Positions 3,884-25,103 of a stretch of DNA of 27,474 nucleotides are shown here, piece after piece (within the stretch, counting starts at the first letter, position 1; the number at the start of each line of letters is the position of its first letter). Where the stretch lies: positions 1 through 27,474 of the forward strand of contig JBBSZC010000007.1 in assembly GCA_038044925.1 (NCBI GenBank), in the 5' to 3' direction. The DNA is from Nanobdellota archaeon (GTDB taxonomy: Archaea > Nanobdellota > Nanobdellia > Pacearchaeales > GW2011-AR1). The position numbers and the translations under genes are program-made. Under the pieces are notes generated by a model that had not been told where the DNA came from, did no database searches, and was given only the letters and a program-made list of their open reading frames with translations.

Positions 3884-5980
3884 TCAGCAATTTCTTCCCA
3901 TTATCATTGAATAAGGTGTTCTTAAAAGAGTAACTAAATCTTCTGGAAGCATGAACTTTTCGTGGAACTTTCTATGATAGTCTAAAGCACATTCTGTTTC
4001 ACTTGGGCATTTATCTGTTCCTCTATAAGCTTGAAACCTAGTAGTTACACCAGCTGTACCATCCATAAATATGTTCTGGAATTCAACAGGAAGCGCGTCA
4101 ATAGCTTTTTGATGTTGGGGTCTTTGGCCACCTACCATCCACATATCCCCTTTTAATACATTTATAATTTGAGTTAATTCATCTAAAGAGAATTTTCTAA
4201 TAATTTTTCCAACTCTTGTTATTCTTGGGTCATTTGGGTTTTTGTAATTTGCCCCTGGATTTACAAAACCTTGTTTACGAGTTTCTTCAAATTGTTTATG
4301 TGCATTCTGGTTCATTGATCTAAACTTGCGCATTGTTGTTTCTTTATGATTAACTATTACTTTTTGTTTATAAAATACAGGTGCTTTTAATCCGGATTTA
4401 AGCGCTTTTATTGGGCCTAAATGTAGATTATCATATACTTCTTCTGCTTTTATTGCAGTGCCAATTCCAAGAGTCAATAAAGCTAAACTAGGCACCCATA
4501 GTGGTGATGTAGCAGTTAAAACAGAAAGATCAAATGCACGTTTAGTATAACGGTTTATATCAACAATATGCCCTTTATACCAATCTCTTATTTCTTGAGT
4601 GAGAAGAGAATAGGCTTGATTATTATTTTTTTCTTTTTCTTGAATAATCTCGTCTAATTCATTTACTAAAGCATCTTGGGTTAATGATTCTGAGTTGTTT
4701 TTGTTTGCTCTTACTAATAATTCTCTAATCGCTTCAAGATGGGGATTTTGAATTTGAACAGAATTTTCATCTTCTTTCTCTTTGCGAATACTGGCTGCAA
4801 AATCCTGAATTTGAGATGTACTTATTACATAATCTTCTAATCTTAATCTTTTTGGTTTACTTTTTAATCTTCTGTAATTATTTTTTAAAGAACTTACAGT
4901 CCTTTTAAACCAACCAGGTGCGTTGATTTTTGATTTCTCCTGTGAGGGGGTTATAACAGATGCAGGTTGTTCATGAATATTAGACATTTCTTCTAAATCT
5001 TTGTAATTAGAAATAACCGTTCTTCTTTTTTCTAATTCTGACAGGAAAGGAGAATATTCAAATTGTAAGTTTGCAGGCAGTTCTTTTGCAACTTCCTCCT
5101 GCAATTTTGTATTATAATCTGTTTTATTTAAGTAATTAAGGAGATTTTTTATTTCAACAGGCTTAAGTCCGGTGTTTATTCTATTCCAGTGTTCAGTGAA
5201 AGCAGAGAAGTCAGATGCTTCCTCTAAATTTAAATATCTTCCATTTTTATTAAAAAATTCTTTTTCCCATCTTAATTCTTCAGCTACTAATGCAATTCCT
5301 TCGCTATAATCTAGTTTTTTTGATAAAAGTTCTATTGGTCTGTAATCTTGAGCTTGGTTTAATGAACTTTCTAAAGAAGAATCTATGTATTCTTCTGGTT
5401 TAGTATTAATTGTTTCTTTTGATTCAGTATTAATTGTTGTTGAATAAGGAACTGTGATATATGAATCTAAAATTTCTGTTGGTGTTTTTCTTGTTCTTGG
5501 CTGCCTTTTTTTAAGTTCAGGATCTATGTCAGAATCAATTAATCTATTAATCATCCTGTAAAAAGTTGAACTGCTTACGCCTTTATTCTCAATAATTTTT
5601 TTAACAGGTGTTTTTGTTGTTTTATAAAGATAAACCATTTCTCTTATGTCATCATAACTTAATTTGGTATATGACTCTTTTTTTTGTGTTGCATATCCTG
5701 TTTCATATTTAGACATGTTTCTAAGAGAGTTGTCAACAAGGATTCTATTAGGGTTATAAGAATGCCAAGGTTTAGCTGAATCTTGCGGGAAATCAATAAT
5801 TTGTGTTTCTAATCTTCTTGTTTCTAGGGGAATATTAGCGCTTTCACTTTCTGTATAAATCTCATTAAATTCAGATGAAAAAGGATCAACTATTTCTGCT
5901 AAACCTCTTGATGGATAAGCTAATTCTGTTCTGCTTGCAACAAGGCATCTTCTTGAATTTTTTTCTGTATTTTTTATCAT
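3884..5980 (-). CDS. Monotopic phosphoglycosyl transferase (bacterial sugar transferase, WbaP/PglC type) fused to a ~475-aa N-terminal extension with an HTH
   Basis: The C-terminal ~220 aa carry the family hallmarks. These are a re-entrant helix with Ser-Pro (FDLSVLTATSPLWVPSLALLTLGIG), KFRSM, DPRITRVGKIIRKFSLDELTQIINVLKGDMWMVGG (Asp-Glu dyad), and a distal LDYHRKF...LLRTPYSMI block. The N-terminal part has an HTH-like segment (LSYDDIREMVYLYKTTKTPVKKIIENKGVSSSTFYRMINRL, about nt 5540-5662). Confidence 0.8.
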   Translation of the reverse strand: MIKNTEKNSRRCLVASRTELAYPSRGLAEIVDPFSSEFNEIYTESESANIPLETRRLETQIIDFPQDSAKPWHSYNPNRILVDNSLRNMSKYETGYATQKKESYTKLSYDDIREMVYLYKTTKTPVKKIIENKGVSSSTFYRMINRLIDSDIDPELKKRQPRTRKTPTEILDSYITVPYSTTINTESKETINTKPEEYIDSSLESSLNQAQDYRPIELLSKKLDYSEGIALVAEELRWEKEFFNKNGRYLNLEEASDFSAFTEHWNRINTGLKPVEIKNLLNYLNKTDYNTKLQEEVAKELPANLQFEYSPFLSELEKRRTVISNYKDLEEMSNIHEQPASVITPSQEKSKINAPGWFKRTVSSLKNNYRRLKSKPKRLRLEDYVISTSQIQDFAASIRKEKEDENSVQIQNPHLEAIRELLVRANKNNSESLTQDALVNELDEIIQEKEKNNNQAYSLLTQEIRDWYKGHIVDINRYTKRAFDLSVLTATSPLWVPSLALLTLGIGTAIKAEEVYDNLHLGPIKALKSGLKAPVFYKQKVIVNHKETTMRKFRSMNQNAHKQFEETRKQGFVNPGANYKNPNDPRITRVGKIIRKFSLDELTQIINVLKGDMWMVGGQRPQHQKAIDALPVEFQNIFMDGTAGVTTRFQAYRGTDKCPSETECALDYHRKFHEKFMLPEDLVTLLRTPYSMIMGRNC

Positions 5981-12454: not shown

Positions 12455-14878
12455 TCATAATCTCTTCTCTATTTTTACTGCTGTTGGAGCTTCTCCTCCG
12501 TGCCATGTAAACCTAGGCCTTATACGCATCGGATATATTCTTTCTGAATTGTCATCAAGAATTATTGCAGAACCCTTAAGTTCAGGAAGATTATTTATTT
12601 GTTGTTTTATTCCTTCTAATACATAGCTCTGCATTATATAATTTAAGGCTTCTAAGTCTGGTTTTGCTGTAATTTTATGCGAAATAACAATATCTGCTTG
12701 AGTCATTACATCTTTATGAATTTGTCCTGGCTGCTGTGTGGCTAAGACAAGAGAAATTCCTGGCTGTCTTCCTTCTCTTAACAACTGAATTAAGGCATCA
12801 GTTGCTATTGTTTTTCCCCTTAATGGAAGAAATTCATGGGCTTCATCAATAAAAATCCAGACTAAGGGATATTCTTTTTTTTCTGCTCCAGACAAATACT
12901 CAAGCCCCTTTGCTATAGAATCAACTTCTTCTTTTTTTCTCATGAGCATTCTTTGATTAAAAATTTTTCTTGAAATTAAGCTTATCGCTAGAGCTCTTAT
13001 ATTAAAAGCTCCTACTGAATTATACACACTCAAATCTAAAACAGTGGTTAACCCAGGGGTTATTAAATCATTAATCTGTGTTTTATCAGATTCTTTTTCA
13101 GAGAAAATTCCCCAGGTTTTTGCTGCTTCAAATAGGCCTATTGCAGCATTTTTTATTTCTTGAGAAGTATTTTTATCTTGGATTATTGTTGCGATAATAT
13201 CCTCTATTCTAAAATTTTTCTTTTCTTTTAATCTGGACAAAACCCTTTCAATTAAAATTGCTACCGGATTTATCATATCTAATCCAAAAGTTAAAATCCA
13301 ATCTTCTGAAGTCATTTCATTTAAATCCAGGGAGAATTTATCATCTGCAAGGATTCCCCTTTCTCTGTAGTAATCATAATAACCGACTGGAACAAATATT
13401 TTTACAGGAAGATTTTTTGGTTTTAAACCCCATTGAGACAAAAGTTCTTTATCTTTTTGATTTTGATATTTCATAGTCCAATAAATTCCCATTGTATCAA
13501 AAATTAAAGAAGCAATATTCTGGCTTACTTTTTCATCAAGGTTTGAGAGTTCTTCTGCTATGACACCTAAAGTATAAGATTTTCCTGAATTGTGTGAAAT
13601 TATTCCGTTTGCAATAAACGAGTGATTTTTATTTACAGATAGGTCATAGACTTCATTAATTTCTTGGATTTCTTTTATACTCTTTATTCTTCTACATACT
13701 AAGTTATCTGATATATAGAATGTTTTTCTTTTTCTTGTCTTATTATCCTTATGTTTTTCTAATCTGTTTTGCTTAAATCTACTTATAAATCCAATCTTCT
13801 TGAAATTCTCCATTGAAGAATTATCTGTTATAAAGAGTCGATAATTTTTATATATCTTATTTGCGCATTTTGCATTTTTTTCTCTTATAGAGGATTCTAT
13901 CTCAAAATGTGATAAAATTAATTGCAAATCTTCTAAAAACTTTCTTGACTTGCTGGAATAATCTATATACTTGCCGTTGTTAGCAATATATCCATCACAC
14001 GAGAAGAGTGCCGATAAAAATTGTGCTTTGAATGTATTGGAACTCTCCAATACAATTTTAGGTATTCTAATTATTCCTGCTTTGTTCCCTAAAGGTACAC
14101 CTAATTCATGAATCTTATTAACAACTCTTGCATAAAGCGATTGAACAACAGAGCAGTCACAATCATTTCTTTTATATTGTTTTACATATAATCCAAATTC
14201 TTCTTCTAAATCTTTTTTTGCTATATTCAGTACATTTTCATCGTTGCAGAATATTCTTAATCTGCTTTTTGTCCCATTATACCAGCTACCTCTTCCATCT
14301 TTCCATCTTCCTTTTCTCTTGCTTATCGTTCCATCTGATAAAACAAATCCCAATATTCTTGCAAGTCTAAGGCTTTTTTCATTTTTTTTGATTTCTTGCA
14401 ATTTTGTAGATAAAATTATTTTATCTCTTGTTTTTAATTCTTGGGCCATTCTCCAAAAAAGATATTTTCCATAATTAACAAGCAAAGGATGTTCTTTAGT
14501 AAGTTGTAATTTTCTTCCATCATCTAATTCTATTTCTAATAATTTTTCTTTTGAAATATCATATTGTAAAAGTTCCGCATTTTCCCATTCAAACTCTTTT
14601 TTCTCTTTGTTAAATGAAAGAACTCTGTTTTCTTTTGAGTTGAATTCTTTTATAGGTTTATATCCTTCGTTTGTGAATATTAATGTTTCTCCTGTTAAAC
14701 ATCCTCTTTTTCCTGCAACTAGGACAACATGGGTTTTTGCAATGTCCATAAATAGGTTGTTGCTTAGAGAAGTGTATTGCCCCATTTTTACATAGCTCTT
14801 TCCAAGGTAAATTATGCCTTTTTTGCCTATTAATTTTTTATCAGATTCGTCTCTTCCAAGTATTATATCATAAGGCAT
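12455..14878 (-). CDS. HerA/DUF87-like P-loop ATPase interrupted by an intein (extein about 436 aa)
   Basis: Joining the exteins restores Walker A (VVLVAGKRG|SGKSYTLGV). Walker B is VWIFIDEAHEF, and the C-terminal LLREGRQPGISLVLATQQPGQI...ADIVISHKI is typical of HerA/FtsK-like DUF87 ATPases. Confidence 0.85.
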   Translation of the reverse strand: MPYDIILGRDESDKKLIGKKGIIYLGKSYVKMGQYTSLSNNLFMDIAKTHVVLVAGKRGCLTGETLIFTNEGYKPIKEFNSKENRVLSFNKEKKEFEWENAELLQYDISKEKLLEIELDDGRKLQLTKEHPLLVNYGKYLFWRMAQELKTRDKIILSTKLQEIKKNEKSLRLARILGFVLSDGTISKRKGRWKDGRGSWYNGTKSRLRIFCNDENVLNIAKKDLEEEFGLYVKQYKRNDCDCSVVQSLYARVVNKIHELGVPLGNKAGIIRIPKIVLESSNTFKAQFLSALFSCDGYIANNGKYIDYSSKSRKFLEDLQLILSHFEIESSIREKNAKCANKIYKNYRLFITDNSSMENFKKIGFISRFKQNRLEKHKDNKTRKRKTFYISDNLVCRRIKSIKEIQEINEVYDLSVNKNHSFIANGIISHNSGKSYTLGVIAEELSNLDEKVSQNIASLIFDTMGIYWTMKYQNQKDKELLSQWGLKPKNLPVKIFVPVGYYDYYRERGILADDKFSLDLNEMTSEDWILTFGLDMINPVAILIERVLSRLKEKKNFRIEDIIATIIQDKNTSQEIKNAAIGLFEAAKTWGIFSEKESDKTQINDLITPGLTTVLDLSVYNSVGAFNIRALAISLISRKIFNQRMLMRKKEEVDSIAKGLEYLSGAEKKEYPLVWIFIDEAHEFLPLRGKTIATDALIQLLREGRQPGISLVLATQQPGQIHKDVMTQADIVISHKITAKPDLEALNYIMQSYVLEGIKQQINNLPELKGSAIILDDNSERIYPMRIRPRFTWHGGEAPTAVKIEKRL
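13589..14701 (-). mobile_element. Intein (371 aa) with a LAGLIDADG homing-endonuclease domain, inserted in the Walker A P-loop
   Basis: It starts at Cys60 (CLTGETLIF, block A). Block B is LQLTKEHPLL, and the two LAGLIDADG motifs are LARILGFVLSDGTI and FLSALFSCDGYI. The C-terminal splicing blocks are VYDLSV...NHSFIANGIISHN, followed by +1 Ser (SGKS). Boundaries were verified at the nucleotide level (TGT at 14699-14701, AAT at 13589-13591). Confidence 0.9.
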
Positions 14879-20334: not shown

Positions 20335-21021
20335 TTACCTGTTTCTTTGAACACCAATCTTTGGACAGTATTTGTTTATAGGACATTTTGAACACCATGG
20401 CGAAATTGGCTGGCAGATTTCTTTTCCAAACAAAACAAAAATTCCATTGAATTCTTGCCAATATTTTTTTGGAAGAATTAATTCAAGAGCTTTTTCTGTT
20501 TTTTCCGGCGTTTTTGTTTGAACCCATCCTAGTCTATTAGGTATTCTATGACAATGAGTGTCTATTGGCAAAACAAGCTCCCCAAAAGCAAATGAAAGAA
20601 CTATATTTGCTGTTTTAGGGCCTATGCCTTTTATTGATAATAATTCTTCTTTTGTTTCAGGAACTTTTCCATTGAATCTTTCAATTAATTCTTTTGAAAC
20701 GTGCTGAAGAGTTCTAGCCTTTTTTTTATAATGCCCTGAAGAATAAATTAAGGTTTCAAGTTTTTTTATTGGAAACTTCATAATTTTTTCAGGTGTGATT
20801 TTTTCATCTAAAGCTCCGAAGAGTTTTTTTGAAGCAATTTCTGTGTTTTTATCCTGAGTTCTTAAGGATAAGAGGCAAGAGATTAAAATCTTGAAGGCGT
20901 TTTCATTGTTTTTTCGCATTCTGTTTAGAGTGGTTTTTTCTTTATGATTGTAATATTCTGAGAGAGTTTCCATTATAGGAATAATATTTTTTATATATAA
21001 TTTTTCTTGATGATTTTCCAT
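20335..21021 (-). CDS. nth: Endonuclease III (HhH-GPD DNA glycosylase/AP lyase with a 4Fe-4S cluster)
   Basis: HhH motif LLSIKGIGPKTANIVL with the catalytic Lys, the Asp in PIDTHCHR, and the C-terminal cluster CQPISPWCSKCPINKYC. Confidence 0.9.
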   Translation of the reverse strand: MENHQEKLYIKNIIPIMETLSEYYNHKEKTTLNRMRKNNENAFKILISCLLSLRTQDKNTEIASKKLFGALDEKITPEKIMKFPIKKLETLIYSSGHYKKKARTLQHVSKELIERFNGKVPETKEELLSIKGIGPKTANIVLSFAFGELVLPIDTHCHRIPNRLGWVQTKTPEKTEKALELILPKKYWQEFNGIFVLFGKEICQPISPWCSKCPINKYCPKIGVQRNR

Positions 21022-21091
21022 TTGACAGACAAGATATTTGATGATTTAAACTTTCTTCTTTTCTTAATTTTTTTAGGTGTGCAGGTTCATA

Positions 21092-21248
21092 ACATATATC
21101 CTATGTAATTAATCTGATTTTATAGAGGAGAATATAGTTTTATTAATTAGCTTAAGAAAAGAGATAAGAAGAACTTTTTAATCAATTTAGAGTTTTATTG
21201 ACGATAAGGTTATATAATTTTAAGTAAAGTCAGGGGTAGGATATATGT
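21092..21248. repeat. 12-bp inverted repeat ACATATATCCTA / TAGGATATATGT (21092-21103 and 21237-21248) inside a 445-bp non-coding spacer
   Basis: Read directly from the sequence. Each arm is accompanied by a direct copy of TTAATTTTTT(T)AGG (21064-21078 and 21264-21276). GTGCAGG occurs at about 21078 and about 21363. Confidence 0.35.
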
Positions 21249-21466
21249 CCTGGTCTTATACACTTAATTTTTTAGGAAAGACTTATAAATGATTATTTTT
21301 CTAATTTATAATGGAAAATAAAAATTTCAAAAAACTTGAGGAAGTTTTAATTAACTATTAAGAGTGCAGGCTAAAATTAAAAATATTATTATTAATTTGA
21401 ATATGTATTAATCTAATCTATTAATTAAAATATGTAAATTTCTTGCTAAACAATTAAAATTCAAAA

Positions 21467-22726
21467 TTAGTCTTTGAGCCTTCCTGTTAAATCTTCTCGC
21501 GGGATTCCCCGGGCATTTATCAACAAAATTAGTTGAGACCTATTGTTTTCATAAGATTTTGAGCTTGTTAAATCCTTAATTAATGGGATTTTATTTAATC
21601 CAGGAACCCCTCTTGTAACATCTTTATACCTGGAAAATAAAGAATCTAATGCGAAATATGTTTCTCCTTCCTGAAGAACATAATTACTGCTTAAGTTTGC
21701 ATCTCTGAATATAGGAATTTGTTCTGTTGCTGTATATCCAGTTTGTTCTCCAGACTCCATTTCATTTATTTCAAGATTGATGTAACCATCATCATTTCTA
21801 TGGGCTTTGCCTATAAATTGTACTCCAGTTTTTTTGTATTCTACTGTTTTTATTAAATTGTCTTTTACAAACACAAATTGCGGGAATGGAATAGAAGACA
21901 TATTGCTCATCTTTACTTCTTGCCCATTTGATGCAAGCAGGTCTAAATCTGCAAGGATTTCAACATGCCCCCTGCTGTCTAAAAATTTTACGATGCTATT
22001 AAACTCATATCTTTGATTATCTAAACTGTATAATGGATTGCCATAAACACCCATTGTTAGACTTTTTCCATCTGAACTGCTTGGAAGATTTAAACCTAAA
22101 ATAGATTTTCCATCTCGTAATATATCTAAAATATTTTCTCTATCATATGTGTTGTCTCCAAAAAACTCCAAAAGCTTTATTTTTATTCTTATTTGTTCTG
22201 CAGGAATATCCATCTGATTTAATAAAGTTGAAAAATAACTAAAATCCCCGAATTTTTCCCTTGGTCCGGAAAAAACCACCATATTCCTCTGAGGAAATTC
22301 ATGCATTTCTATATCTGATAAATGTGGCTCGACTAATTCAATAAGCTCTTTAGGAGACACTCTGCATTTGTAAAGCAAGACCAATCCACCAGTAGCATTT
22401 TCTATATACTCTGCATTTATTAATGGAACTTTAAAAATTGTATTAGGTGTTGCATTAATTACTTCTTCAAGGGCAGTTGCTGGCCTTTGTTCTTCTTTTA
22501 AGTAAGTTCTGTCATTTACAACAACCCTTTGGTTTTGAGCATCATGTTTTTCATAATCAATTTCTATTTTTTGAAAATCTAGAGCGTCTTTGTTTTTTTG
22601 AGTGTCTGCCCTAAAAATTTCCTGATATGGGTCAAATTTTCTCTGTTTTTCTATTGAGCTACATCCAAGAATTGTAGAAAAAGATAAAATTCCTGCTAAG
22701 ACGTTTCTTAATAATCTTTTTTTCAT
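21467..22726 (-). CDS. Secretin-family protein with a lipoprotein signal peptide (Secretin_N/NolW-like domain plus secretin C-domain)
   Basis: The probable start is Met8 (22724-22726), giving MKKRLLRNVLAGILSFSTILG|C with lipobox Cys at 22661-22663. The N-domain ends in NMVVFSGPREKF...LLNQMDIPAEQIRIKIKLLEF. The secretin core reads FLDSRGHVEILADLDLLASNGQEVKMSNMSSIPF, VEYKKTGVQFIGKAHRNDDGYINLEINEMES, IPIFRDANLSSNYVLQEGETYFALDSLF, and RGVPGLNKIPLIKDLTSSKSYENNRSQLILLINARGI. Confidence 0.8.
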   Translation of the reverse strand: MKKRLLRNVLAGILSFSTILGCSSIEKQRKFDPYQEIFRADTQKNKDALDFQKIEIDYEKHDAQNQRVVVNDRTYLKEEQRPATALEEVINATPNTIFKVPLINAEYIENATGGLVLLYKCRVSPKELIELVEPHLSDIEMHEFPQRNMVVFSGPREKFGDFSYFSTLLNQMDIPAEQIRIKIKLLEFFGDNTYDRENILDILRDGKSILGLNLPSSSDGKSLTMGVYGNPLYSLDNQRYEFNSIVKFLDSRGHVEILADLDLLASNGQEVKMSNMSSIPFPQFVFVKDNLIKTVEYKKTGVQFIGKAHRNDDGYINLEINEMESGEQTGYTATEQIPIFRDANLSSNYVLQEGETYFALDSLFSRYKDVTRGVPGLNKIPLIKDLTSSKSYENNRSQLILLINARGIPREDLTGRLKD

Positions 22727-22812
22727 GCAAACCTTCTGATATAACACTTTAAAAGGATTTGTTTGCTGAAAAATGCAGAAAACTTTATATAGTTTGGAGT
22801 ATCTGTTTTATT

Positions 22813-23199
22813 ATGATTTGGAAAAGCTTAGAAAAAAGATTAAAGCAAGGTGCTTTGGTTACTGGATTGTTGGTTGGATTATCAAGTTCTGTTTCTGATG
22901 CAGATACAATTTATTATGGAAAATTAAAAGGCGCACAGAGAATTGCATATGTTGAGTTTGATGAAGTAAAGGTAGAGAGTAAATACCATAAACAACTTGA
23001 AAGATTAAGTGAAACAGATCCGAAATATACTGTTTTTGTTAATAAGAGATATAATAGCATAGTAGCAGCAATTACAGAAGTTGCTAAAGAAGAAAAATAT
23101 GATGTGGTTATTGAAAAAGGCGACCCAGATGTAAAAAATTCTACTGATATTGGAGAACTTGTCATGGCGAAATTAGAGGAAATTGAAAAAGATGCCTGA
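22813..23199 (+). CDS. Secreted OmpH/Skp-like protein, miniature form (short coiled-coil arm)
   Basis: From the ATG at 22813 there is a signal peptide MIWKSLEKRLKQGALVTGLLVGLSSSVSDA. The two ends then resemble the OmpH/Skp body: an N-terminal strand RIAYVEFDEVKVESKYHKQLE, and C-terminal IVAAITEVAKEEKYDVVIEKGDP...STDIGELVMAKLEE (compare the family pattern i..ai..vAkekgydlVld....DiT..V...L). It is divergent from the secretin with an ~86-bp spacer. Confidence 0.45.
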   Translation: MIWKSLEKRLKQGALVTGLLVGLSSSVSDADTIYYGKLKGAQRIAYVEFDEVKVESKYHKQLERLSETDPKYTVFVNKRYNSIVAAITEVAKEEKYDVVIEKGDPDVKNSTDIGELVMAKLEEIEKDA

Positions 23200-23250
23200 G
23201 CTGGTAGTTAGTGATAATTCTAAATCATGTGCGAGATAAATTTTTATCTA

Positions 23251-23291
23251 TAGTCAAGGACGATGAAATTTATTCGTTTGCGCCTTGACTA
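23251..23291. other. Strong hairpin: 9-bp stem TAGTCAAGG / CCTTGACTA with an inner 4-bp ACGA/TCGT helix
   Basis: Read directly from the sequence. It lies about 50 nt downstream of the Skp-like stop, is preceded by a T5 run, and abuts the TTG of track ORF 23292. Confidence 0.4.
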
Positions 23292-23312
23292 TTGAGGGAA
23301 AGTCATACAATT

Positions 23313-23492
23313 TTGGTCAATTATTTACGACTTTCATTATATCTATCCCCTAAATCTATTGGAGCAGGAACAATTGGAGCTTTAGGAACAAGTTTGTTAG
23401 TTCCTATGCTAGGAGTTTACTTTTTTCCAGGACTAGTCCTTTTTGGCTCTGCTTCTTCTTTGGTTAAGATTATTTCTAAAAAATTTAATTGA
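23313..23492 (+). CDS. Possible small hydrophobic Gly-rich membrane protein (only TTG starts available)
   Basis: The sequence ...SPKSIGAGTIGALGTSLLVPMLGVYFFPGLVLFGSASSLVKIISKKFN looks like one or two TM helices. There is no in-frame ATG before the hydrophobic region, and the ORF overlaps the pduL 3-prime end by 8 nt. Coding status is uncertain. Confidence 0.25.
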   Translation: MVNYLRLSLYLSPKSIGAGTIGALGTSLLVPMLGVYFFPGLVLFGSASSLVKIISKKFN

Positions 23493-24054
23493 TAATTAGT
23501 TCCCCATAAGATTTTTTATTTATTCCTGCTGCATTTGCTTCATCTGTATCGATTTGAAAAGCTAATTTATGTCTCTTTCCTGCTCTTATAATTACATTTT
23601 CAAATATCAATCCTCTTTTTCCTTTAACTCTTATCTTTACTTTTTGATTATTTTTTAGATTTAATTTTTTAGCTTCTTGTTCTGATAAATGAAGGTGCCT
23701 TTCTGCTATTATTAAACCAGTTGTTTTTATTTTTTCCTTAGAGCCCTTAATAATTATACCTTCAGAATTTTTTAAACCCCCTGAAAGATTTATTGGGGGA
23801 GTTTTTTTTAGTTTTAAATAATAAGAATCTGTTATTGAAATTTCAATCTGAGTTTTATTTCTTACAGGGCCAATAACCCTTGCTTTTAATTTCTTATTTT
23901 TATTTATTAATTCAACTTCTTCATTTGCTGCAAATTGCCCTGGTTGAGAAATAATCTTAATTGGCTTTAGTTTGTAGTTTTTCCCAAACAAGATTTCCAG
24001 ATGCCTTTTTGAAAGATGAACATGCCTTGCAGATATTTCAATTGGAATTTTCAT
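23485..24054 (-). CDS. pduL: PduL-type phosphate acyltransferase (phosphotransacetylase/propanoyltransferase analogue)
   Basis: Two PduL repeats are each introduced by the His motif: IEISARHVHLSKRHLEILFG and IIAERHLHLSEQEAKKLNL. The tail is AFQIDTDEANAAG. The gene overlaps the ackA stop (ATGA at 24051-24054). Confidence 0.85.
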   Translation of the reverse strand: MKIPIEISARHVHLSKRHLEILFGKNYKLKPIKIISQPGQFAANEEVELINKNKKLKARVIGPVRNKTQIEISITDSYYLKLKKTPPINLSGGLKNSEGIIIKGSKEKIKTTGLIIAERHLHLSEQEAKKLNLKNNQKVKIRVKGKRGLIFENVIIRAGKRHKLAFQIDTDEANAAGINKKSYGELIIN

Positions 24055-25103
24055 TTAATTATTTTTAATACCTCTCTTATTATTATTTCATCCTCATTTG
24101 CTGATTTGACATAGATTTTAACTTTAGAGGAGCTTGAAGATATTAGTCCTTTGTTTTTCTCGTTTTTATTTTTATCTAATTTTATTCCTAAAAAATCCAG
24201 ATGTTCACAGATATCTCTTCTTAGTCTTGGAGCATTTTCTCCTATTGCTCCTGTGAAGATTAGATTATTTAAGCCGTCTAAAACAGCGGTGTAAGCACCA
24301 ATGTATTTTATTATTCTGTAAACGAACATATCATAAGCAAGTTTTGCTTCTTTATTTTTTATGTTTTTTAAAATGTCTCTGAAATCCGAATATTTTTGGT
24401 TAGTTATACCTTTTATTCCTGATTTAATATTAAGAATTTTATCTGTATCATATCCTTTTTTTTCAAGGAATAGAACTATTCCTGGATCAAGGTCCCCACT
24501 CCTGGTACACATCATTAGTCCTTCTAATGGAGTTAAACCCATTGAAGTGTCTATTGGCTTATTATTTTTTATTGCAGTCATGCTCGCGCCTCTTCCTAGA
24601 TGGCAAGTTATTGTTTTTCCCTTTAATCCCCTTGAAACTGATTCATGAGAAAGTCCATGAAAGCCGTATTTTCTTATGTGATATTTTTTTGAAAGCTCTT
24701 TAGGAATTGGATAAAGTTTAGTTATTTCTGGAAGTTTTATAAAAAAACTAGTATCAAAAACAGCGAATTGAGGTTTTTTGAATTTCTCTGCAAGGTTTAT
24801 TATCATTAATTCTCTGGAATTATGCAAAGGAGCGAATTTAGAAAAATCTCTTATTTTTTCTTTTACCTTTTTATCTATTTTTACAGGGCTTTTCATATTT
24901 CCTCCATGAACAACCCTGTGCGCTATAATATCAAAACCAACTTTTTTACTCAATTCATTGCTTATTTTTTCAAAGGATTTTTCATAATCTTCTTTGCTTT
25001 TCAATTTTTCATATTTTCCTTCTAAAATTTTTTCCCTATTTTCAAAGAGGCTAAATTTTATTGTAGAGCTTCCAACATTAAAAACAAGTATTTTTTTCAC
25101 CAT
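24051..25103 (-). CDS. ackA: Acetate kinase (compact, 350 aa)
   Basis: ILVFNVGSSTIKFSLF, HRVVHGG, FDTSFF, YGFHGLSHE, CHLGRGASMTAIKNNKPIDTSMGLTPLEGLMMCTRSGDLDPG and FTGAIGENAPRLR are the canonical acetate/propionate kinase blocks. Confidence 0.9.
   Translation of the reverse strand: MVKKILVFNVGSSTIKFSLFENREKILEGKYEKLKSKEDYEKSFEKISNELSKKVGFDIIAHRVVHGGNMKSPVKIDKKVKEKIRDFSKFAPLHNSRELMIINLAEKFKKPQFAVFDTSFFIKLPEITKLYPIPKELSKKYHIRKYGFHGLSHESVSRGLKGKTITCHLGRGASMTAIKNNKPIDTSMGLTPLEGLMMCTRSGDLDPGIVLFLEKKGYDTDKILNIKSGIKGITNQKYSDFRDILKNIKNKEAKLAYDMFVYRIIKYIGAYTAVLDGLNNLIFTGAIGENAPRLRRDICEHLDFLGIKLDKNKNEKNKGLISSSSSKVKIYVKSANEDEIIIREVLKIIK

Follow-up and report, generated by a model that had tools for sequence, protein, structure and literature searches.

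Secretins are regarded as a hallmark of diderm bacteria and of the phages that infect them. A secretin-like gene on an archaeal contig raises the question of whether it is what it seems, whether it belongs there and what its product could do. We analysed such a gene in a stretch of 27,474 nucleotides, here called the window, which comprises positions 1 to 27,474 of contig JBBSZC010000007.1 from a Nanobdellota archaeon (GCA_038044925.1). A preliminary description of this DNA, made from its letters, had reported a lipoprotein secretin on the minus strand. The corresponding ORF (21467-22747) comprises 426 aa when read from a GTG at 22747, while an ATG at 22726 (M8 of the ORF) lies further downstream. 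Since the database protein P0002 begins at this ATG, it is likely the true start. The coding sequence then spans 21467-22726 (minus strand; 419 aa; stop codon at 21467-21469), and a search of the genome located the secretin at the same place (C7:21470-22726).

We confirmed that the window protein is a genuine secretin. The ORF matched the Pfam family Secretin (PF00263) with E=2.6e-17 and 63.4 bits (cut-off 27.5) over residues 256-413 of its 426 aa. Pfam, HMM alignment, Foldseek, VIA and PHROG together delimit a secretin domain with beta-sheets, amphipathic helix and beta-lip region (residues ~176-419; 21467-22201, minus strand). The full secretin core proposed in the preliminary description was thus borne out, and its C-terminal GxPxLxxIPxxxxLF-type motif (the RGVPGLNKIPLIKDL region) aligned with the equivalent motif of GspD in the HMM alignment. 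Profile matches among PDB sequences comprised GspD, PilQ, pIV, RcpA and InvG. The AF2 monomer, predicted from an alignment of 8 homologues, reached a modest pLDDT of 64; with this model, Foldseek found InvG, GspD, PilQ, pIV, RcpA and BfpB at E~1e-12, and VIA-align gave Z scores of 12-14 against the same proteins. Among the NCBIfam models, those for GspD, PilQ, MshL, SctC and HofQ were matched, all far under their equivalog cut-offs (TIGR02517 for T2SS GspD, 38.6 bits versus 351; TIGR02515 for PilQ, 36.6 versus 284; HofQ, 24.4 versus 554). Because the Pfam domain is complete but the NCBIfam scores stay far below these cut-offs, we consider the protein a secretin that lies outside every named bacterial subfamily.

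The region in front of the secretin domain is short. Residues 1-22 (22661-22726, minus strand) read as a signal peptide with the lipobox-like end ILG|C22, in agreement with the lipoprotein-type signal MKKRLLRNVLAGILSFSTILG|C noted earlier, which fits the start at 22726. The Cys22 position is invariant in all 7 full-length relatives of the alignment. The residues preceding it vary (ILG, LTG, FTG, GTG, NIS and TNS), and a canonical lipobox occurs in some members only. A charged linker of low confidence follows (residues 23-95; 22442-22660, minus strand), in which, as in the signal peptide, AF2 pLDDT fell below 50 for most of residues 1-56 and 80-92. Residues ~96-175 (22202-22441, minus strand) are predicted to form a KH-like N-domain of the N1/N3-like kind, as judged from VIA, from the beta-alpha pattern of the AF2 model and from a weak Secretin_N match in the relative P0006. 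As to the NolW/Secretin_N module of the preliminary description, Pfam returned nothing on residues 20-255 at E<=10, Secretin_N included, and P0006 was the one relative with a match (E=0.048), whereas VIA aligned residues ~110-174 with the N-domain of XcpQ (Z 6.4). The motif DIPAEQIRIKIKLLEF, which had been taken as the end of this module, is instead the beta-strand at the start of the secretin domain and aligns with DIRRAQVLVEAIIVEV of GspD. Judged by its sequence and its model, the protein is a compact lipoprotein secretin that combines a lipid-anchor signal, one KH-like N-domain and the full secretin barrel domain.

We then asked whether the gene belongs to the archaeon. The host genome (615 kb, 79% complete, AT-rich with a GC content of ~29%) is archaeal and of the DPANN kind, that is, of the small, symbiotic archaea. 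Around the secretin, the window encodes the large and small RFC subunits, PolB, FEN1/XPG, Trm5/TYW2, a CDC48/PAN-like AAA protein and HerA. Of the archaeal flanking genes named previously, RFC, PolB, FEN1 and the Trm5-like gene were recovered, but no L41e ORF of at least 80 aa was found in the window. The base composition that the secretin was said to share with its flanks is indeed uniform (28-32% GC across the window). All words of the region are present in the source run, and one Logan contig of this run extends unbroken over 20717-23304 and covers the secretin, the partner gene described below and both junctions; Logan contigs of a second sample gave contiguous pieces of the region as well. 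The check for a chimeric contig that had been called for thus turned up none. That bacterial DNA was joined to an archaeal contig during assembly is extremely improbable: secretins are otherwise bacterial, which would speak for it, but the contig is continuous over the gene and both flanks, the composition is even, and relatives occur within archaeal gene clusters of independent MAGs. We rejected an assembly chimera on the continuity of the source-run contig together with this conserved synteny.

Relatives of the gene form a well-delimited family. A word-based search found 8 of them with 40-53% identity, and when 1.84 billion representative proteins were searched with an HMM, a tight group of ~25 clusters at 50% identity emerged, beyond which scores dropped sharply (from E 1e-53 and below to ~1e-28 for general secretins). 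The carriers are Woesearchaeota and Pacearchaeota MAGs only. In a tree of 92 secretins (FastTree, midpoint-rooted), the archaeal family came out as a single long-branched clade (support 100%). The phylogeny suggested earlier thus established a single clade but named no donor: profile, Foldseek and VIA scores were about equal for T2SS, T3SS, T4P and pIV secretins. The nearest clusters in the ESM Atlas were bacterial, mostly Planctomycetota GspD-like, which reflects only which clusters the Atlas contains. The orthologues that were to be sought in related MAGs were found, and none of them has GspE/PilB-like neighbours.

In five of the MAGs (L004, L011, L012, L013 and L014), the secretin gene lies between the EF2-rps7-rps12 cluster and the nusA-rpoA-rpoB cluster on the opposite strand. 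Because these five share the RNAP/str position, the gene was inherited within the DPANN clade and is no recent acquisition, in line with the old, retained acquisition that had been supposed. For the same reason, namely that several independent MAGs have the gene at one place, with archaeal nusA/rpoA on one side and rps12/EF2 on the other, we rejected recent contamination or an HGT artefact. Two copies have left this position: the one in the window now neighbours RFC, EndoIII-like and acetate kinase genes, and one from Hainich groundwater has TrmB, AsnC and multiheme cytochromes around it. The gene was absent from the 40 close relatives of the window genome that were sampled, and a PF00263 match of any kind occurred in only 2-3 of the 401 genomes sampled in the phylum. 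Given this very patchy distribution, we regard the secretin as accessory, tied to particular hosts or particular niches, and not as a general DPANN feature.

One of the five loci, L011 (GTDB contig DAOTCN010000001.1), carries the CPR bacterial name 'Candidatus Paceibacterota bacterium', yet its secretin locus is plainly archaeal, with EF-2, an archaeal NusA-KH protein, an unsplit Rpb1 of 1145 aa and Rpb2; this is probably a mislabelled Pacearchaeota MAG. We also came across a second, distinct archaeal secretin lineage. Its representative P0029 (364 aa, lipobox LTGC; locus L025, GCA_053531595.1, contig JAIYQP010000050.1) is encoded beside an archaeal L21e/RpoF/DUF655/S13/S4/S11/RpoD/L18e/L13 cluster, forms a separate clade in the secretin tree and belongs to a lineage that was not found in the phylum of the window archaeon.

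In addition to the secretin, we identified a gene for a small secreted protein on the opposite strand (22813-23199, plus strand; 128 aa from M19 of its ORF), which the preliminary description had missed. In 8 of 10 loci, the window included, the secretin gene has a neighbour of this kind on the opposite strand. The two genes face outwards from a shared intergenic region (22727-22812), in which TATA-like AT-rich motifs can be read from the sequence, among them TTTATATA at ~22789-22796. The product begins with a predicted Sec-type signal peptide (22813-22899, plus strand) that corresponds to an N-terminus of low pLDDT and ends in a conserved ..xADT (alignment A3). Pfam OmpH matched its C-terminal half with E=6.8e-5 at 23.5 bits, which is below the cut-off of 32.4. 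The AF2 model was confident (pLDDT 81), and its top Foldseek matches in the PDB were Skp (1sg2 and 1u2m; E 0.013-0.034, TMt up to 0.74) and SkpA (8gl8). Like Skp, the periplasmic holdase of diderms, and SkpA of the Bacteroidota T9SS translocon, the partner is small and secreted. However, Skp has long tentacles where the partner has a shorter, single helix of 24 residues, and the partner gene adjoins a secretin gene rather than BAM genes. These sub-threshold profile and model matches suggest, weakly, a Skp/OmpH assignment, and the protein is likely a chaperone. A predicted complex of secretin residues 22-419 (A2) and partner residues 28-128 (A3) scored 0.13 against a mark of 0.32, which argues neither for nor against binding.

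Comparison with characterised secretins places the window protein closest in build to the compact ones among them. With a family length of 419-478 aa, the archaeal proteins fall into the range of pIV and HofQ, unlike GspD and PilQ; pIV of f1/M13 and HofQ of E. coli are likewise ~420 aa long, with a full barrel behind a short N-region that comprises one or two N-domains. Lipoprotein secretins such as BfpB of the bundle-forming pilus share the lipobox-like signal and the conserved Cys ahead of the secretin domain, and BfpB (9u5s) was among the Foldseek matches. In contrast to BfpB and pilotin-dependent secretins, the archaeal protein comes without T4bP or T2SS partners, an S-domain or a pilotin gene; hosts of BfpB-type secretins are diderm, whereas neither outer membrane genes nor Lol, Lgt or Lsp were found in the archaeal genome. 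The secretin domains of GspD, PilQ and SctC (InvG) can be aligned to that of the window protein, which lacks their N0, N2 and N3 domains, S-domain and neighbouring secretion-system genes.

The likeness to pIV deserves separate mention, as it bears on a possible viral source. The pIV structure 7ofh gave a VIA Z of 13.1, and phrog_1012 (M13 protein IV) matched the window secretin with E=7.2e-16, about as strongly as the T2SS and T3SS secretin profiles did. If the protein were a pIV homologue that a filamentous virus or provirus had introduced as its own export pore, this match and the pIV-like length would be accounted for. We consider such a source very improbable, since the T2SS and T3SS matches are equally strong and the gene occupies the same chromosomal place beside the RNAP/str genes in several genomes. 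Moreover, no phage-like genes were found near the secretin in the window or the family loci, virus-like genes are largely absent from the loci of its members, and the neighbours in the window are housekeeping genes, where a filamentous phage genome would have pI, pII and pVIII. Whereas pIV is encoded by phages and has no lipoprotein-type signal peptide with Cys, the archaeal secretin has such a signal and is encoded on a chromosome, free of phage genes and next to the Skp-like partner gene.

If the secretin is the archaeon's own, which machinery could it serve? Neither the window secretin nor any family member examined has T2SS or pilus genes (GspC/E/F, pilins) beside it, unlike the bacterial GspD P0010, which sits within a gsp-type operon. 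The preliminary description had remarked on the absence of a pilus or T2SS ATPase from the window, and we found a type IV filament ATPase together with two platform-protein domains on another contig of the genome, away from the secretin (G000 contig C11; 8590-9675 and 11109-11756). With these genes present, and given that DPANN archaea contact their hosts with type IV pili, the secretin might be the outer gate of an archaeal type IV filament, the pilus passing through its ring as in the T4P of diderms. This is quite unlikely, however, because secretin and filament genes lie on different contigs, pilus genes adjoin no family member, secretins are known to be dispensable for the pili and archaella of archaea, and type IV filaments are widespread where the secretin family is patchy.

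Another reading concerns the archaeon's own membrane. Omp85/BamA, Lgt, Lsp and ComEC were not found in the 79%-complete window genome. The secretin could form a lipid-anchored, strictly gated channel in the archaeon's own cytoplasmic membrane, for uptake of macromolecules (DNA, in the manner of HofQ or PilQ) or for export of folded proteins. Lipoprotein secretins have anchor and barrel in one membrane, and the cytoplasmic membrane is the sole bilayer that the archaeon can call its own; the HofQ- and pIV-like size and the missing outer membrane genes fit as well. We nevertheless hold this reading to be doubtful, if worth keeping in view. Bacterial secretins leak and set off the Psp stress response when they end up in the inner membrane, a genome in which ComEC was not found offers no known onward route for DNA across the membrane, and a dedicated Skp-like holdase suggests that the secretin first traverses an aqueous space and inserts only then.

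To our knowledge, every secretin characterised so far is a membrane-inserted, centrally gated double-walled beta-barrel of 12-15 subunits. By analogy, the archaeal secretin would multimerise into a gated beta-barrel ring of 12-15 subunits, and this ring would act as a wide channel, closed unless opened by a large substrate. The Skp/OmpH-like protein would most likely hold the secretin, or guide it to its membrane, outside the cell. The pairing of a lipoprotein mini-secretin with a Skp-like holdase suggests that an unfolded precursor crosses an aqueous space and inserts afterwards; in a DPANN cell, this space could be the one between membrane and S-layer or the gap to the host. Because no outer membrane genes and no neighbouring T2SS or pilus genes were found, the ring most likely works alone at the cell surface. 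We therefore favour, with a probability of roughly 0.5, a gated surface pore, built from the lipid-anchored mini-secretin with the help of its chaperone and perhaps placed at the contact to the host. As to the target membrane, we lean towards a ring inserted at the host-cell contact, through which macromolecules or metabolites would pass between symbiont and host.

A more specific version of this proposal concerns the identity of the host. The archaeal secretin and its Skp-type holdase would both have come from diderm bacteria, and the episymbiotic archaeon might insert them into the outer membrane of a host that is Gram-negative, as an attack or feeding pore whose trans-envelope channel connects archaeon and bacterium. 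We rate this version as unlikely; if it were true, the secretin-carrying Woesearchaeota and Pacearchaeota would have bacterial instead of archaeal hosts.

Several consequences would follow from the surface pore that we favour and from the family as such. A vertically inherited, archaea-only secretin clade with a Skp-like partner, residing in the chromosomes of host-dependent DPANN archaea, would change the view of secretins as diderm markers; a review of the TFF superfamily, for example, regards monoderms as lacking them (PMC6668835). It would also mean that components of the bacterial outer-membrane machinery were borrowed by archaeal lineages and kept. In the literature searched, we found no description of archaeal secretins, and the family thus appears to be a newly recognised, archaea-specific secretin lineage with a partner gene of its own. 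The only related remark concerned ARM-1, a DPANN archaeon in which cryo-ET revealed a 21-nm envelope barrel at host-nanotube contact sites that the authors likened to a secretin (PMC11329633). ARM-1 represents a DPANN lineage other than that of the window archaeon, and its authors gave the barrel no gene (PMC11329633). We treat a connection between this barrel and the archaeal secretin family as a lead only; the secretin-like barrel at DPANN-host contacts can now be compared with a gene (PMC11329633). The archaeal secretin makes macromolecule exchange between DPANN archaea and their hosts a testable question, and it should be of interest to specialists of both secretion systems and DPANN biology.

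The window holds further features that deserve mention. Just downstream of the Skp-like gene, at 23171-23346, the Logan contigs showed a 7-fold spike in word depth and breaks in the graph, and a strong inverted repeat, ATAGTCAAGG...CCTTGACTAT, lies near 23240-23285; a further graph break was seen near 20717-20750. At 23485-25103 (minus strand), a PduL-type phosphotransacylase (PTAC) gene adjoins the acetate kinase gene, which gives this archaeon an acyl-phosphate pathway of bacterial type. The HerA-like helicase (DUF87/HerA_C; 12455-14878, minus strand) contains an intein (Intein_splicing, E=1.2e-22), which interrupts it and carries a LAGLIDADG homing endonuclease. Finally, a 698-aa protein encoded at 3884-5980 (minus strand) ends in a polyprenyl-phosphate sugar-1-phosphate transferase domain of the WbaP/EpsZ type (TIGR03025, E=9.6e-30) and possibly serves the synthesis of cell-surface glycans.
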